Of a stretch of 63,476 bases of DNA, positions 1 to 63,476 are shown one piece after another. Both the position numbers and the translations under genes were made by a program. The DNA comes from an uncultured Deinococcales bacterium. Lineage in GTDB: Bacteria > Deinococcota > Deinococci > Deinococcales > JAAFIG01. The stretch is from positions 1-63,476 of the forward strand of contig CAXTKV010000002.1 of assembly GCA_964244895.1 (NCBI GenBank). The letters are read 5' to 3'. Under the pieces are notes generated by a model. It saw only the letters and a program-made list of their open reading frames with translations. It was not told the origin of the DNA and did not search any database. Each line of letters starts with the position of its first letter. The stretch's first letter is position 1.

Positions 1-10
1 GGTGAAACAA

Positions 11-40
11 GAAACACCGTCCCAGACGGTGTTTCTCGAG
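11..40. repeat. Palindromic intergenic repeat (SRE/REP-like), single-hairpin copy with CTCGAG flank
   Basis: gaaacaccgtc-cca-gacggtgtttc is a perfect palindrome with 11-nt arms, followed by ctcgag. The same core (CACCGTC..GACGGTG) recurs more than 30 times in the window. Confidence 0.85.
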
Positions 41-121
41 TTTGAGATGCAACGCCTGCTTTAAGCAGGTACTTTCTGGCACAATGGAACCATGACTCAG
101 ACTGCGACGTTTATTGGCACA

Positions 122-2386
122 TTAAAAGTTCTTATCGATTGGATCGTCAATCATTTGGTTAATCCTCTTCTTAAATTCCGTAGTTTTATTAACCACTTTT
201 TCAAACTTCTTTAATGCTTTTCCAAATTCTAAACCTTTCGTTTTGTCAATTTTTTCATGGGATATAGCAAAATAGACCTCCAGAGGTAGATTTTTCATCT
301 TTTTAGAGAAATATTCGAGTTCGGCATATTCACCCAGCTCTATCAAAGCAACAACGCAAAAATATAATTTATACATGGAAAGTGCGTCATCTGCAGACGC
401 TAAATCCTTCGAGATTTCCTTTAGTGATTTTTTAAGGTAGTCATATGAATATTTTCTTCTGAATATAGATTGAAACATAAATAAAAGTACTATTTGGGGC
501 ATGGAAGAAAGAAAAGACTTTGTTTTGCCCGAAACAATTCGAAGATAGAATTCCGAGAACTCAGTGATTACTTTATCTAACAATCGATGCGTTGTTTGGT
601 ACGGTGTAGAGTATGCAGCTAATAGAATATCGGGGAAATTTATAATTTTGACGAATTTTTCGATTTCGGATTTAGGAACCATGTCCGAAATTTCAGTTAA
701 TTGCAAGGGTGCATCTTTTTTGAGGCCCAAATAGAAAAAGTATGAATTCATCCAATACAAATTGAATATTTTTTCAGACATAGGCATTCCGTCGGTGCGA
801 ATCTTTTTTAAAGCATACAAATACTCGAGAAAAGTTTTGTGTTTAAACATAAAAATATTATCCTCGATGCTTCCATATATAATATCGGATCTTTTTATTA
901 GTTTGTTCAAAAGAGCATCATGATCTAGATTCAAATTCCTCTCACTCAAATAATCGCGGAATTTTTCCCGTGCCTCCGTTAAAGAAAGTTTTGGTACATT
1001 GTTGTCTAGCATGAATTCTGCAATATTCATTAGAATATTTTGAACAGCTTCGTACTCCTTTTCTGACTTTATACCTTTGTTTATGTCCCACCTACCTAAA
1101 GAAAGTTCTGTATATTTTGCATACAGTTCTGTAAGGTTTGATGGTAAATCAGCAGAATTGTCGTTTATTAAACGCGCTAATAGTATCGCCGAGATTGGAT
1201 TTTGAGGGAGCATACGAAAAACCTGAGAACGACTAATATCGTCAAATATCTTCTTGCTTAAATTCATTGTTTTACATATCTCTTGGATGAAATTCACTGT
1301 TTTTGATAATGTGAGCGGTGGAATTTGTAATCGATACACGCCAAATATTTGCGAATCAAAGTCATCTAGATCTCTACTGGCTAGTGTTATATGCAAATTA
1401 TAATTAGAAGATTCTGATTGCCTGATCAGTTCTTCTATGTGTTTTTTCCTTTCATCGCTTTCTATTTCTAGTTCATCAAAAGCATCTAAAAAAATTATAA
1501 TCTTAGAGTCCGCTGCTTTAGATAATAGATCAGCATCAACAGATGATTTTACCAAATTTTCTAAACTATTATTATGATCTACATACAATTCAGCATAAGT
1601 ACATCTGATTGGGATGCACTTCTTTGTTAAATAAATTTCTGGTGAACAGTAGTGATCGATAATTTTTCTAAGTAAACTGGACTTCCCCGAACCCATATCA
1701 CCTTCAAGCAGTACAAAGCGATTATTTTCGATTGCATCTATAGGATCGATTTTTTTATTAGTTTTGAAGAATCTTGGATTCATTCTTTTTGGAATTCTAA
1801 CGTATTCAATCACGTCATTTTCTATGTAAATTGGTGCGTCGCCTACCACTATAATACTAGATTGTAAATTTTCCTTGTGGTTTTCGGTACGTAATTTCTC
1901 GAGATAAAGCCCAGTTTTTACTTCAATATTGCTCCAAAATGTAGGAACGTATTTATCAATTAAAGCTATTAAATCGTGACCACTAATAAATTCTATCTTT
2001 CTGTTTTTGAACTTTTCAAATATTTTTTGTTTGGCATTTTCGCTAATATTTTGAGTTGTCATCACCCAGACTTCTGAGATATAAATTTTTTTCTTTCCAG
2101 AGTTGTAAAATCTTTCGATAAGGAAACATTCATCTATTTGCTGCTCGATTTTAGTGGTGTCCTGACTTATTTTACCTATTTTTACCACTATGCCAACGTA
2201 ACTTGTCCGTAAAAGCACTTCATCTTGCTTTTCAAATACAAAATCTGCTCCCATTTCACGTGAACCGTGAGTGTATTCATGACTTATAACGGAAGGAAGA
2301 ACTCCGAGTAAACTAGAAATAATTGGATGCAACTCATCTACTTCGTCAGAGATATTGTTTATTCTTTCCACTTTATTTTCGTACAT
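122..2386 (-). CDS. NACHT/STAND P-loop NTPase with an N-terminal Mrr-like (PD-(D/E)xK-type) domain and a helical C-terminal region; Avs/bNACHT-like candidate defence protein
   Basis: 754-aa ORF at ~30% GC in a >60% GC context. SD GAGGA lies upstream of the ATG. Walker A GDMGSGKSS, Walker B IIIFLDAFDELE and TLASRD occur in NACHT-like spacing. The N-terminal ~165 aa has an Mrr-like layout (GADFVF..GIVVKIGK..ISGHDLIALI). Confidence 0.75.
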   Translation of the reverse strand: MYENKVERINNISDEVDELHPIISSLLGVLPSVISHEYTHGSREMGADFVFEKQDEVLLRTSYVGIVVKIGKISQDTTKIEQQIDECFLIERFYNSGKKKIYISEVWVMTTQNISENAKQKIFEKFKNRKIEFISGHDLIALIDKYVPTFWSNIEVKTGLYLEKLRTENHKENLQSSIIVVGDAPIYIENDVIEYVRIPKRMNPRFFKTNKKIDPIDAIENNRFVLLEGDMGSGKSSLLRKIIDHYCSPEIYLTKKCIPIRCTYAELYVDHNNSLENLVKSSVDADLLSKAADSKIIIFLDAFDELEIESDERKKHIEELIRQSESSNYNLHITLASRDLDDFDSQIFGVYRLQIPPLTLSKTVNFIQEICKTMNLSKKIFDDISRSQVFRMLPQNPISAILLARLINDNSADLPSNLTELYAKYTELSLGRWDINKGIKSEKEYEAVQNILMNIAEFMLDNNVPKLSLTEAREKFRDYLSERNLNLDHDALLNKLIKRSDIIYGSIEDNIFMFKHKTFLEYLYALKKIRTDGMPMSEKIFNLYWMNSYFFYLGLKKDAPLQLTEISDMVPKSEIEKFVKIINFPDILLAAYSTPYQTTHRLLDKVITEFSEFYLRIVSGKTKSFLSSMPQIVLLFMFQSIFRRKYSYDYLKKSLKEISKDLASADDALSMYKLYFCVVALIELGEYAELEYFSKKMKNLPLEVYFAISHEKIDKTKGLEFGKALKKFEKVVNKTTEFKKRINQMIDDPIDKNF

Positions 2387-2478
2387 AATTTCCTCGATTA
2401 ATCAGTCAATTTGGAATTTGATACTATACTTCACTTCTGTCTTTTAGGTTGCGCGAACAATTGGATTCTGTTAATTGC

Positions 2479-2988
2479 TCATCCATTCTTCGGGAATCCT
2501 GCAACCAACCCTGACTGCTCAATCTCACCACTCGCATCAAAAAACTGCACGTGTCCATCATGATCGCACGTCCAGAATTCTGATGCGCCAGCCTGAAGGT
2601 ACAACTCGCGTTTGCGCTCAAATTCCTCTGCGGTGTTGCTGGGACTCCAGACTTCCACGCAAATCTCGGGCGCAACCACGAACAATTCTTCGGGTGCGGC
2701 TTCGTAACGTTCCGTGCTGGCCCAGGCCACGTCCGCGACGCGCACGCCGTCGGTGGTTTGAATGGCGGCTTCCGTGATGGTGTCCCCGTCTTGCATGTGC
2801 GTCTCGAGCCACGCGGCGATGATGGTTTGCAAGCGCCCGTGTCGTTTCGCGGTGGGACTCATGATGATTTGACCTCTAGCGTTGGTTTCAATTTTGAATG
2901 GCATGTTTTCCCAGCGTGAATCCTGAAGCAGTGTTTTCCAATGCTCGAGGGTCGCGTCTTGGGCGGGTCTGGTTGTGACTTGGCTCAT
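2479..2988 (-). CDS. Uma2-family (DUF820) endonuclease-fold protein
   Basis: 169 aa. Family-typical motifs are KIETNARGQIIMSP, HGRLQ and EICVEVWSPSNTAEEFERKRELYLQAGASEFW. A TAGAAT -10 box lies 6 nt upstream of the ATG. Confidence 0.8.
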   Translation of the reverse strand: MSQVTTRPAQDATLEHWKTLLQDSRWENMPFKIETNARGQIIMSPTAKRHGRLQTIIAAWLETHMQDGDTITEAAIQTTDGVRVADVAWASTERYEAAPEELFVVAPEICVEVWSPSNTAEEFERKRELYLQAGASEFWTCDHDGHVQFFDASGEIEQSGLVAGFPKNG

Positions 2989-3135
2989 GGGTTCATTCTA
3001 GGGCGTGCGTCCTGCACGGTGTTCTCGAGAAGTCAATATTTGCGTCCTGGACGGTGTCCCTCGGATCAAAACGAACCACATCACTGAATAACTCATCTTC
3101 GGATTCTAAACATGTCCATGTACTAGAATAAGATT

Positions 3136-62400: not shown

Positions 62401-62536
62401 GGCTGGATTGTACCCGAGGTCAGGACGACCAAACGTGTCGGTATCTTCAAGCGCGTCTGGTACGAAGAATTCACGCGGCAGTTTGAATCTCGAAGGCTGG
62501 TTGAATCTGGAAGGCGGGTGCGGCTCGCTCGGCGGT

Positions 62537-63049
62537 TCAAGGCTGTCGGGGTCGCTCGAACGCCGCGCGGTGACGCTCGAGCGCGACGCGGTAGGCGGGA
62601 TCGTTCCTGACGCGTTCGAGTGCGGCTCGAAAAATGCGCGCGGATTCCGCTTTGATGGGATCGGGCTCGAGCGGCAAGACAAAGCGCCCGTGCGCGCCGC
62701 TCTGACCGCGTTTTTCGATGGGCACGCGCCCGTCGTATTTTTTGCCCGACCTGTGGTTGGCGTATCGTCTGGAGCGCGTCCAGCCCATCTGCAGGAATTT
62801 TCGAGCCATGTCCATGCCGACGAAATCGCCGCGATCGCGGTAGTGCTTGAACATGCGTTCGAGCGCCAGCGCAGATTCCTTCGCGATATCCGGTGTCCTG
62901 AAACGCCACAGCGGCAGCAGTTCGGATTTGTACGGTTCGACCGTCAGGACGCCCTGCTCACCGACGCCGATTCGGTAGGCTTCCGGGCGAAGTCTGAAAT
63001 CGGTGGTGGCGTAATCGGCTTCGTAGATCGGGTTCGAGGAGTCGCTCAT
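62537..63049 (-). CDS. DUF4385 domain protein
   Basis: 170 aa from the ATG at 63049. The motifs YRIGVGEQGVLTVEPYKSELLPLWRFRTPDIA..DFVGMDMARKFLQMGWTRSRRYANH are typical of DUF4385. Confidence 0.75.
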   Translation of the reverse strand: MSDSSNPIYEADYATTDFRLRPEAYRIGVGEQGVLTVEPYKSELLPLWRFRTPDIAKESALALERMFKHYRDRGDFVGMDMARKFLQMGWTRSRRYANHRSGKKYDGRVPIEKRGQSGAHGRFVLPLEPDPIKAESARIFRAALERVRNDPAYRVALERHRAAFERPRQP

Positions 63050-63051
63050 GA

Positions 63052-63083
63052 GGTTGTGAGCCGCTATTGAGCGGCTCACAACC
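63052..63083. promoter_or_regulatory. 13-bp perfect hairpin 2 nt upstream of the DUF4385 start codon
   Basis: ggttgtgagccgc-tattga-gcggctcacaacc. It has a T-run on the plus side (atttttccc). It also lies downstream of the PSP1-domain gene stop. Confidence 0.6.
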
Positions 63084-63140
63084 ATTTTTCCCATTCGTCT
63101 GAAGCGTTGTTGACGCGCACCTGATGGGCACCTGAGATTT

Positions 63141-63476
63141 TCAGGCGGGGCGCAGGGCGTCGGGTCTGGCCTCGAACCACTGTCCCTCTTCGGTGCGCAC
63201 CTCGACGGTTCCCTTCAGGGGATTGAGCTTGGCGACCTTGCCGCAGAGCGCGCCCTCGTCGGTGCTGCAGACCTTCGCGCCCTTGCGGGGCAATTCCGAG
63301 AGCAGTTCCTTGTACATGTCGTGTTCATATTGCAGGCAGCACAGCAACCTGCCGCACGGCCCGGAAATCTTTTCGGGGTTCAGGGGCAACTGTTGATCGC
63401 GCGACATCTTGATGGTCACGGGCGTGAAGTCCTGAAGGTGGTGGCTGGAGCAATTTTCCGTGCCGCACACGCCCAG
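63141..63476 (-). CDS. PSP1 domain protein (YaaT/RicT-like), 5'-truncated by the window end
   Basis: [17 protein letters not shown] is the PSP1 C-terminal signature. The ORF runs off the right edge of the window. Confidence 0.8.

Follow-up and report, generated by a model that had tools for sequence, protein, structure and literature searches.

CTCGAG is a highly over-represented palindrome in a Deinococcales genome segment and in several relatives among the Deinococcota

The analysed segment and its CTCGAG sites

The DNA analysed here is a stretch of 63,476 bp from an uncultured Deinococcales bacterium (contig CAXTKV010000002.1, positions 1 to 63,476; GC content 60.8%), which we refer to as a whole as the window. 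Its most frequent hexamer is the exact palindrome CTCGAG, found in genes as well as in the DNA between them, and the same word is enriched in several other members of the Deinococcota. Genes of the window were called with a codon-statistics heuristic of our own and then checked against Pfam. The features on which the analysis draws are listed below.

1..63476, no strand: CTCGAG, exact palindrome, 250 copies, 3.94 per kb
122..2386, minus strand: NACHT/STAND NTPase gene of a 33%-GC island, two CTC GAG sites, 0.88 per kb
3136..3462, plus strand: small DUF433 gene, four in-frame CTC GAG in 327 bp (12 per kb)
7120..7616, no strand: region without a called gene, between nrdJ and the M42 peptidase gene, five sites and a short tandem repeat
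11682..12089, no strand: divergent intergenic region upstream of pilT, five sites in 408 bp
12090..13256, plus strand: pilT, no site and no Leu-Glu dipeptide, the longest site-free stretch
13257..13346, no strand: spacer between two pilT paralogues, three sites in 90 bp
17788..17827, no strand: terminator-like hairpin AAAACCTCGAG-N14-CTCGAGGTTTT(T), one of only three intergenic hairpins from paired sites
20572..20599, no strand: hairpin GAAGCCTCGAG-N8-CTCGAGGCTTTC
29314..29369, no strand: example copy of a lineage-specific hairpin repeat abutting CTCGAG (CTCGAG-AACACCGTCC...GGACGGTGTTC)
42445..42451, plus strand: TCT CGA G, with rare Ser and Arg codons, in a GNAT gene
52433..54880, plus strand: GlnRS-YqeY fusion gene, 15 sites, 9 of 14 Leu-Glu pairs written CTC GAG
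59468..60877, plus strand: argH, seven sites, 5 of 7 Leu-Glu pairs written CTC GAG, TCT CGA G at 60167-60173

An earlier reading of this DNA from its letters only (the sequence-only reading) had counted eight sites in 2803-3519, eight in 7261-8280, seven in argH and seven in nrdJ, and these counts were right, as were its statements on the Leu-Glu codons of argH, on the in-frame TCT CGA G at 60167 and 42445, and on pilT, which lacks both the site and the Leu-Glu pair. Much of the cluster at 2803-3519 is due to the four in-frame sites of the DUF433 gene.

CTCGAG is the top hexamer of the window

The 250 copies compare with 20.8 expected from base composition, with 25.5 ± 4.7 (maximum 39) in 100 shuffles preserving dinucleotides, and with Markov expectations of 20.5 at order 2 and 69.5 at order 3. 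The observed/expected ratio is 10-12 at orders 0-2, in agreement with the roughly ten-fold excess claimed by the sequence-only reading. CTCGAG is first among hexamers by count, ahead of CGCGCC with 135 copies, and also by the observed/expected ratio at orders 0 to 2. At maximal order the Markov ratio is 1.31 (z = 4.3); this test is circular and uninformative here because CTCGAG makes up most of its own pentamers, supplying 250 of the 333 CTCGA and 250 of the 351 TCGAG in the window.

We found no conserved flanks around the 250 sites and no sign of a longer palindrome, to which 61 of them extend, with about 25% expected to do so by chance. The spacing of the sites is Poisson-like (coefficient of variation of the gaps, 1.04) and no periodicity was detected in the window beyond the modulo-3 excess that comes from coding frames. 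The window contains neither dnaA nor a replication origin, next to which the motif clusters of a Dam-like orphan methyltransferase would lie. The transition neighbours of the word occur at normal frequency (0.98 of expectation for CTTGAG/CTCAAG and 1.07 for TTCGAG/CTCGAA).

Other GC-rich palindromes of the window are strongly avoided, as is usual, among them GCCGGC (1 vs 52 expected), CCGCGG (4 vs 62), GGCGCC (8 vs 52), CGTACG (1 vs 15) and GGATCC (2 vs 21). The avoidance of many GC-rich palindromes suggests long past exposure to several type II restriction systems. GTGCAC, CAGCTG, TCGCGA, GTCGAC and GAGCTC are strongly avoided, too.

The excess in genes survives synonymous shuffling and reaches the dipeptide Leu-Glu

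Synonymous codons were shuffled within each gene, so that its protein and its codon usage were kept. In the 34 confident genes we counted 133 CTCGAG, compared to 25.1 ± 4.8 after shuffling (maximum 39), and in the set of 50 genes 181, compared to 36.5 ± 5.4. All three frames are involved: the 34 genes contain 90 sites in the frame CTC|GAG (19.3 expected), 33 in xxC|TCG|AGx (5.1 expected) and 10 in xCT|CGA|Gxx (0.7 expected). The excess over the hexamer background therefore persists once codon usage and protein are fixed, and it does so outside the window as well, as six loci from other genomes had CTCGAG counts above every one of 200 synonymous shuffles, by 2.3- to 6.1-fold.

The codon-pair tables point the same way. 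Leu-Glu is written CTC-GAG 90 times (66% of the pairs), CTG-GAA 26 times, CTG-GAG 8 times and CTC-GAA once, and CTC takes 86% of the Leu codons ahead of GAG, compared to 16-29% in other contexts. Sites are also formed from codons that are otherwise rare, TCT accounting for 4% of Ser codons and CGA for 10% of Arg codons. Coding DNA has about 3.3 copies of the word per kb, compared to about 7 in intergenic DNA.

According to the sequence-only reading the signal acts through synonymous choice. This part stands for the codon pairs, which are clearly biased, but it does not cover the whole effect, since Leu-Glu itself is over-represented and amino-acid replacements also create sites. Leu-Glu was counted 137 times vs 72.5 expected from amino-acid frequencies (1.9-2.0-fold), and Glu-Leu 62 times. 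Among 14 Deinococcota locus groups the observed/expected ratio of Leu-Glu climbs with the coding density of CTCGAG (Spearman rho 0.87, p = 5e-5), from 0.91 in Deinococcus and 0.92 in Thermus to 1.4-1.8 in Meiothermus, Allomeiothermus and Deinobacterium and 2.0-2.4 in the lineage of the window, while Glu-Leu, the control, shows no trend and is mostly close to 1 (0.49-1.45). In sum, enriched genomes reach 1.9-2.4 for Leu-Glu and non-enriched ones 0.9-1.05. At positions of four-way codon alignments where CTC GAG is present in one genome and missing from another, the latter has Leu-Glu in synonymous codons 23 times and a neighbouring dipeptide (LD, LQ, LK, IE and others) 17 times, and therefore the pressure fixes amino-acid replacements too. 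Thus, a force at the DNA level doubles the frequency of this dipeptide.

Intergenic sites, hairpins and a repeat family

For the intergenic count of the window, 25 bp around every core of the hairpin repeat (AACACCGTCC/GGACGGTGTT) were masked. Away from the repeats, the intergenic DNA of the window carries 38 CTCGAG in 5.97 kb vs 3.0 expected (12.7-fold). In the intergenic DNA of four window-lineage loci (three other contigs) the count is 131 vs 6.8 expected (19-fold), and in that of Thermaceae and Deinobacterium it is 13 vs 2.3 (5.8-fold).

Within the window, 31 of the 69 intergenic sites lie at most 25 bp from a repeat core, and 20 of all 250 sites directly adjoin one. The latter figure was obtained with 10-mer cores and up to two mismatches, a threshold that gives 164 matches in the window, some of which are chance matches in coding sequence. 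The repeat is limited to the lineage of the window, with 20-26 cores per 21 kb in the relatives L001 and L085-L087 and 0-2 elsewhere. It forms a family of nested hairpins resembling repetitive extragenic palindromes or miniature inverted-repeat transposable elements, with two forms, GAACACCGTCC-N-GGACGGTGTTC and a longer one with arms ...GGACGCA / TGCGTCC.... With at most one mismatch there are about 70 cores in the window, nearly all intergenic and often abutting CTCGAG; copies lie, for example, at 14530-14552, 21287-21346, 29314-29369, 34842-34897, 52366-52427 and 54881-54940. Rfam and tRNA scans returned no match, the repeat family included.

The sequence-only reading had described many hairpins built from paired sites, which proved overstated, since an extended hairpin is formed by only 5 of the 56 close CTCGAG pairs. 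Three of the five lie between genes and resemble terminators; in the spacer between the pilT paralogues, the sites at 13281 and 13307 form an extended hairpin that is followed by a T run. Two short tandem repeats without a called gene were also observed, at 7489-7560 (units of about 22 bp, CTTCGAGCCGAGCGTCAGAACC) and at 24190-24290 (units CAGCCCGATACCGCGTGTTCG).

CTCGAG sites are retained between relatives

The window was compared with a relative of 90% identity over 28 orthologous genes (27.8 kb, 91.8% identity, 18% divergence at four-fold sites). Of 80 CTCGAG sites, 64 were retained, compared to 52.3 expected from frame-matched hexamers (p = 0.003). The effect was stronger for in-frame CTC|GAG, retained in 55 of 66 cases (83%) vs 51.5% expected from how often CTC and GAG are retained in other contexts (p = 6e-8), and CTC was kept 59 times out of 66 ahead of GAG vs 102 out of 152 elsewhere (p = 4e-4). 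Conservation of Leu-Glu across four genomes, between which synonymous sites should be mostly randomised, was observed for 27 pairs; CTCGAG is present in all four genomes for 15 of them and in none for 2.

Distribution in the Deinococcota

The PilT of the window is identical to that of a 1.46-Mb metagenome contig of the European Nucleotide Archive, with about 90% identity in the flanking DNA, and its closest named relatives are Deinococcota. The GlnRS-YqeY gene served as the query for fetching relatives. Its GlnRS is 61-64% identical to those of Meiothermus, Calidithermus and Deinobacterium, and the fusion to YqeY is present throughout the Deinococcota relatives of this GlnRS. From the relationships of PilT and GlnRS, therefore, the window belongs to a deep lineage of the Deinococcota; in the lineage relatives L085, L086 and L087 GlnRS is 90%, 80% and 74% identical to that of the window, respectively. 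CTCGAG was counted in loci of about 20 kb around pilT or glnS and in plasmid segments of 50 kb, with the following observed/expected ratios.

Lineage of the window (window, L001, L085, L086, L087): 9-16, top hexamer
Deinococcales metagenome-assembled genome (L002, only 5 kb): 40, top hexamer
Meiothermus, five loci: 4.9-13, top hexamer in three of five, including L003 and L011
Calidithermus chliarophilus DSM 9957: 7.7, top hexamer
Allomeiothermus silvanus-type contig: 8.7, top hexamer
A. silvanus DSM 9946 megaplasmid pMESIL01: 6.6, top hexamer
Deinobacterium chartae: 8.8, top hexamer
Trueperaceae: 5.3
Oceanithermus plasmid: 3.8
Thermus: 1.7-2.2
Deinococcus, four loci (L004-L007, 84 kb): 0-0.3, 5 sites vs about 31 expected
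Other phyla: about 0-2.3

In the other two Meiothermus loci CTCGAG ranks third (L084, M. taiwanensis, 12.5-fold) and 33rd (L009, 4.9-fold). The comparison with related genomes thus extends the enrichment to several Deinococcota genera, in a clade-wide pattern with exceptions: five genera or lineages are enriched, Thermus is weak and Deinococcus avoids the word. In the Deinococcus loci the Leu-Glu codon pairs are inverted as well (CTC-GAG 3, CTC-GAA 22, CTG-GAG 28, CTG-GAA 39), and the avoidance suggests XhoI-type restriction in that genus. On the Oceanithermus profundus plasmid pOCEPR01 (L092) we counted TCGAGG 145 times, CCTCGA 118 times and CTCGAG 133 times; the favoured word may have preferred flanks in Oceanithermus.

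Mobile and foreign DNA is poor in CTCGAG

The sequence-only reading had remarked that even the AT-rich island gene carries two sites. This is correct: the NACHT gene, at 33% GC, has 2 CTCGAG vs 0.28 expected (P = 0.03), amid AT-rich Leu-Glu codons, at a density far below that of resident DNA. The insertion sequence (IS) and transposase genes on the A. silvanus DSM 9946 plasmids L089 and L090 (9 kb) contain no CTCGAG, where about 15 would be expected at the density of the surrounding DNA, and the plasmid pMESIL02, which bears a type IV secretion system, is only 2.7-fold enriched. Mobile or recently acquired DNA is, in these cases, poor in CTCGAG.

In Thermus, 5 kb of IS and transposase genes of T. 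thermophilus pTT27 (L091) have no CTCGAG either; the DNA around such genes in L089, L090 and L091 has 1-2.4 per kb. The product of the NACHT gene, in the island at 1-2500, is a protein of 754 aa with NACHT plus NCH1 domains, and a close relative has another gene at this place. It is probably an acquired defence gene.

Methylation of CTCGAG in relatives

Type II methyltransferases forming N6-methyladenine (m6A) in the motif cTcgAg, with no endonuclease listed, have been described in this phylum from SMRT sequencing (Blow et al., 2016, PMC4752239, S3 Table). These are M.Mru1279II of M. ruber, with 99.5% of CTCGAG sites methylated, M.Mch9957IV of C. chliarophilus (listed as M. chliarophilus), with 94.1%, and M.Mhy14884I of Marinithermus, with 94.6% (Blow et al., 2016). 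CTCGAG is enriched in C. chliarophilus DSM 9957 itself and in M. taiwanensis. The latter species we take to be close to M. ruber.

As a query for such enzymes we used M.TaqI, whose sequence was verified against PDB 1AQJ/2ADM. Against the protein database, the matches listed were TaqI orthologues only, with no CTCGAG methyltransferase among them. A tblastn search of the plasmids returned distant N6 methylases; of the two plasmid matches inspected, one adjoins an annotated BsuBI/PstI-family endonuclease and the other an untyped 'restriction endonuclease', and neither is an identifiable XhoI-type system. Methylation is a plausible partner of CTCGAG.

Other genes of the window

The sole nuclease-like Pfam matches among the window proteins are one Uma2-family protein and one PIN-like toxin. 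The gene of the former (PF05685, a putative nuclease) adjoins a toxin-antitoxin pair, DUF433 and PIN-like (DUF5615), at 2479-3804. Uma2 is expanded in cyanobacteria and in Thermus, with 15 copies in Thermus vs 3 in D. radiodurans (Omelchenko, 2005). Iterated palindromes are now seen in these same two groups, which we note as a lead only.

Several tandem pairs were observed: two pilT-like ATPases (12090-14501) and two glutamate/leucine-type dehydrogenases (39223-41970), both pairs being direct repeats at the DNA level too, two PG_binding_1 (peptidoglycan-binding) proteins, one of them also an amidase (42647-44893), and two metallophosphoesterases (45023-46805). The minus strand carries a prkA - DUF444 (yeaH-like) - spoVR cluster at 31778-37093, a conserved stress-response module.

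Interpretation

A DNA-level force, specific to the exact hexamer, favours CTCGAG wherever it is tolerable, most strongly in intergenic DNA. Survival of the synonymous shuffles, the involvement of all three frames and the 12-19-fold intergenic enrichment show that this is not codon usage, and on these grounds the positive force on this exact word proposed by the sequence-only reading was confirmed. We consider it somewhat probable that CTCGAG is a highly iterated palindrome (HIP), of the kind known from cyanobacteria, in much of the Deinococcota, serving as a methylated mark of resident DNA and maintained by fixation bias. By analogy with M. ruber, C. chliarophilus and Marinithermus, the genome of the window would carry CTCG-m6A-G on both strands, through an orphan N6-adenine methyltransferase without a partner endonuclease, and the sites would then be a dense mark of resident DNA. 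They would accumulate through a fixation bias toward site-creating changes, which might be per-site selection, a bias of gene conversion or repair, between genome copies or with incoming DNA, in favour of the marked allele, or biased uptake favouring the allele with the (methylated) site. A mutation bias is unlikely because transitions and transversions at all six positions lead to one and the same palindrome. The data agree with a process that treats every potential site on its own, within the limits set by coding, and selection and drive fit alike.

Several points weigh against this methylated-mark reading. A. silvanus DSM 9946 shows no CTCGAG methylation (Blow et al., 2016, PMC4752239, as M. 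silvanus) and is enriched, so methylation is not needed for sites to persist. The orphan CTCGAG methyltransferase of Nocardia was described with motif clusters at oriC only (Blow et al., 2016), and therefore a methyltransferase alone may not suffice. Pfam scans of the roughly 50 window proteins, to which that search was limited, found no methyltransferase, and a TaqI-family hidden Markov model run against the six-frame open reading frames of all loci found none in any Deinococcota locus. Elhai's model of GmeC-directed repair is inapplicable because the mark is m6A. In addition, each relative is represented by about 20-50 kb, and the gene calls of the window are heuristic. The orphan-methyltransferase mark suggested by the sequence-only reading is thus supported by the enzymes of Blow et al. 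and by the enrichment in C. chliarophilus and M. taiwanensis, and opposed by the enriched, unmethylated A. silvanus.

Among the alternatives, a DNA uptake or transformation signal, a role also listed by the sequence-only reading, by which fragments with the word or its methylated form would preferentially be taken up or recombined, spread by molecular drive and labelling DNA of the same lineage, overlaps in part with the reading that we favour but seems to us rather unlikely as an explanation of its own. Thermaceae are naturally competent and the window encodes two PilT ATPases. Further arguments for it are the densest sites in the least constrained DNA of the lineage, the Poisson-like spacing with no sign of selection for even spacing, and the scarcity of sites in IS elements and foreign DNA. 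From cyanobacteria, a preprint states that the palindrome HIP1 raises the transformation efficiency of Synechococcus in a homology- and methylation-dependent manner (bioRxiv 10.1101/2024.09.10.611283), and another puts HIP1 forward as a universal uptake sequence (bioRxiv 10.64898/2026.06.24.733823). Yet six bases are far below the length of known uptake sequences, only three intergenic inverted pairs are of terminator type, and there is hardly any enrichment in Thermus, whose transformation is the best studied in the phylum. Thermus takes up DNA without sequence preference, and we know of no receptor for CTCGAG uptake. A driver independent of the methyltransferase, in which CTCGAG is bound or nicked by another abundant reader of the palindrome (a nucleoid protein or a domesticated type II nuclease) and the orphan enzymes are secondary, we regard as doubtful. 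It would account for A. silvanus and for Nocardia, and the enrichment in Thermales, Deinobacterium and the deep lineage may exceed the known distribution of the methyltransferase. However, no candidate for such a reader was found, near-complete CTCGAG methylation with no endonuclease listed is seen in three of the four published Thermaceae methylomes, and a recent loss of the enzyme in A. silvanus would leave the sites in place.

The remaining explanations fare worse. Very-short-patch (Vsr) repair at a C5-methylated site, as for CCWGG in E. coli, could be entertained since Nocardia sp. BMG111209 has a CTCGAG methyltransferase of unspecified type with a Vsr partner (Blow et al., 2016, S3 Table), but it is very improbable, and a process of this type is excluded by the normal frequency of transition neighbours together with the m6A chemistry in relatives. 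That the enrichment is a by-product of codon usage, translational codon-pair preference or dipeptide content is hardly credible: CTC|GAG is the frame of 68% of the sites in the 34 confident genes and the maximal-order Markov ratio is low, but the latter arises only since the pentamers are mostly the hexamer itself, synonymous shuffles give 5-fold fewer sites, the other two frames are 6-15-fold enriched, intergenic DNA is enriched without any codons being involved, and the codon pairs of Deinococcus show the opposite pattern. With protein and codon usage fixed, the 181 observed sites refute such an artefact. Spread within the intergenic hairpin repeat (CTCGAG-AACACCGTCC...GGACGGTGTT-CTCGAG), which the sequence-only reading had listed among its possibilities, draws on the sites that abut or lie near cores; we give it next to no credence and reject it, as 181 sites are in coding sequence, the intergenic enrichment remains away from the repeats, and Meiothermus, Calidithermus, Allomeiothermus and Deinobacterium are enriched without the repeat, so that the enrichment is not confined to its copies.

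A wider form of the favoured interpretation is that the Deinococcota, independently of cyanobacteria, have evolved a mark of resident DNA on the scale of the phylum, a six-base palindrome driven to saturation wherever it is tolerable, mostly m6A-methylated by an orphan enzyme, read in recombination, repair or uptake to distinguish resident from mobile or foreign DNA, and strong enough in its effect to reshape the composition of the proteome, with the sign reversed by restriction in Deinococcus; this is a tentative proposal, which we hold to be possible but unlikely as it stands. If true, it would, together with HIP1, suggest a general principle shared by polyploid bacteria capable of natural transformation. 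Over-represented palindromes are rare, as restriction normally removes them, and HIP1 has been unexplained for 30 years; with a second case of independent origin, the HIP problem could be approached by comparison. The Deinococcota offer tractable, transformable thermophiles for this (Meiothermus, with Thermus as a near-negative control), published methylomes, a natural example of enrichment without methylation (A. silvanus), and avoidance of the word in a sister genus. That pressure on a DNA word can double a dipeptide frequency matters for models of codon-pair usage and proteome composition, and CTCGAG density could separate resident from mobile DNA in these genomes.

Comparison with known systems

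In a full-text literature search, carried out in an incomplete library, we found no published description of CTCGAG hyper-abundance in Deinococcota, and its abundance there is not mentioned in Rusinov et al. (2015), the HIP papers, Blow et al. or the Thermus/Deinococcus comparison. A survey of restriction sites in thousands of genomes found over-representation to be rare and weak: just 47 orthodox sites were over-represented, at ratios of about 1.4-1.5, and CCGG in Helicobacter accounted for 41 of these (Rusinov et al., 2015, PMC4687349). XhoI-type restriction-site avoidance concerns the same word in the Deinococcus loci, with the sign reversed in the window. In the Vsr-driven enrichment of CCWGG in E. 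coli a repair bias could likewise enrich the target of a methyltransferase, but that process needs deamination of 5-methylcytosine (m5C) and depletes transition neighbours, neither of which is seen for CTCGAG. The orphan CTCGAG methyltransferases share the recognition word and the phylum with the window; their description covers methylation and the Nocardia origin clusters, and genome-wide hyper-abundance is not part of it (Blow et al., 2016, PMC4752239).

The DNA uptake sequences of Neisseria and the uptake signal sequences of Pasteurellaceae resemble CTCGAG in being lineage-specific, present in coding and intergenic DNA, limited by coding capacity and explicable by molecular drive, and in occurring in naturally competent groups. 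They differ in their length of 9-12 nt, in being non-palindromic, in forming inverted pairs in terminators and, in Neisseria, in having a known receptor. In the window the word is an exact hexamer without flank preference, and the few hairpins among its close pairs are described above.

The closest known phenomenon is HIP1 (GCGATCGC) of cyanobacteria with the alternate HIPs GGCGCC, GCsGC and rCCGGy (Elhai, 2015, PMC4390886; Xu, Lawrence and Durand, 2018, PMC5861425). In both cases a short GC-rich palindrome is the most over-represented word of the genome, at densities similar in order (about 4000 per Mb for CTCGAG vs 300-2700 per Mb for HIPs), present in coding as well as non-coding DNA, conserved at its sites above background and distributed clade-wide with exceptions. 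The word also matches the specificity of an orphan methyltransferase, for CTCGAG in the relatives, and the alternate HIPs co-occur with a matching methyltransferase (Elhai, 2015, PMC4390886). The CTCGAG case is nevertheless different from the known HIPs in phylum, word, methylation chemistry and spacing: CTCGAG is a hexamer vs the octamer HIP1 (the alternate HIPs, hexamer- to pentamer-sized, include hexamers), its mark in relatives is m6A vs m5C or N4-methylcytosine for HIPs, and its spacing is Poisson-like whereas HIP1 is reported as quasi-periodic. For CTCGAG, furthermore, the effect on dipeptide frequency has been quantified.

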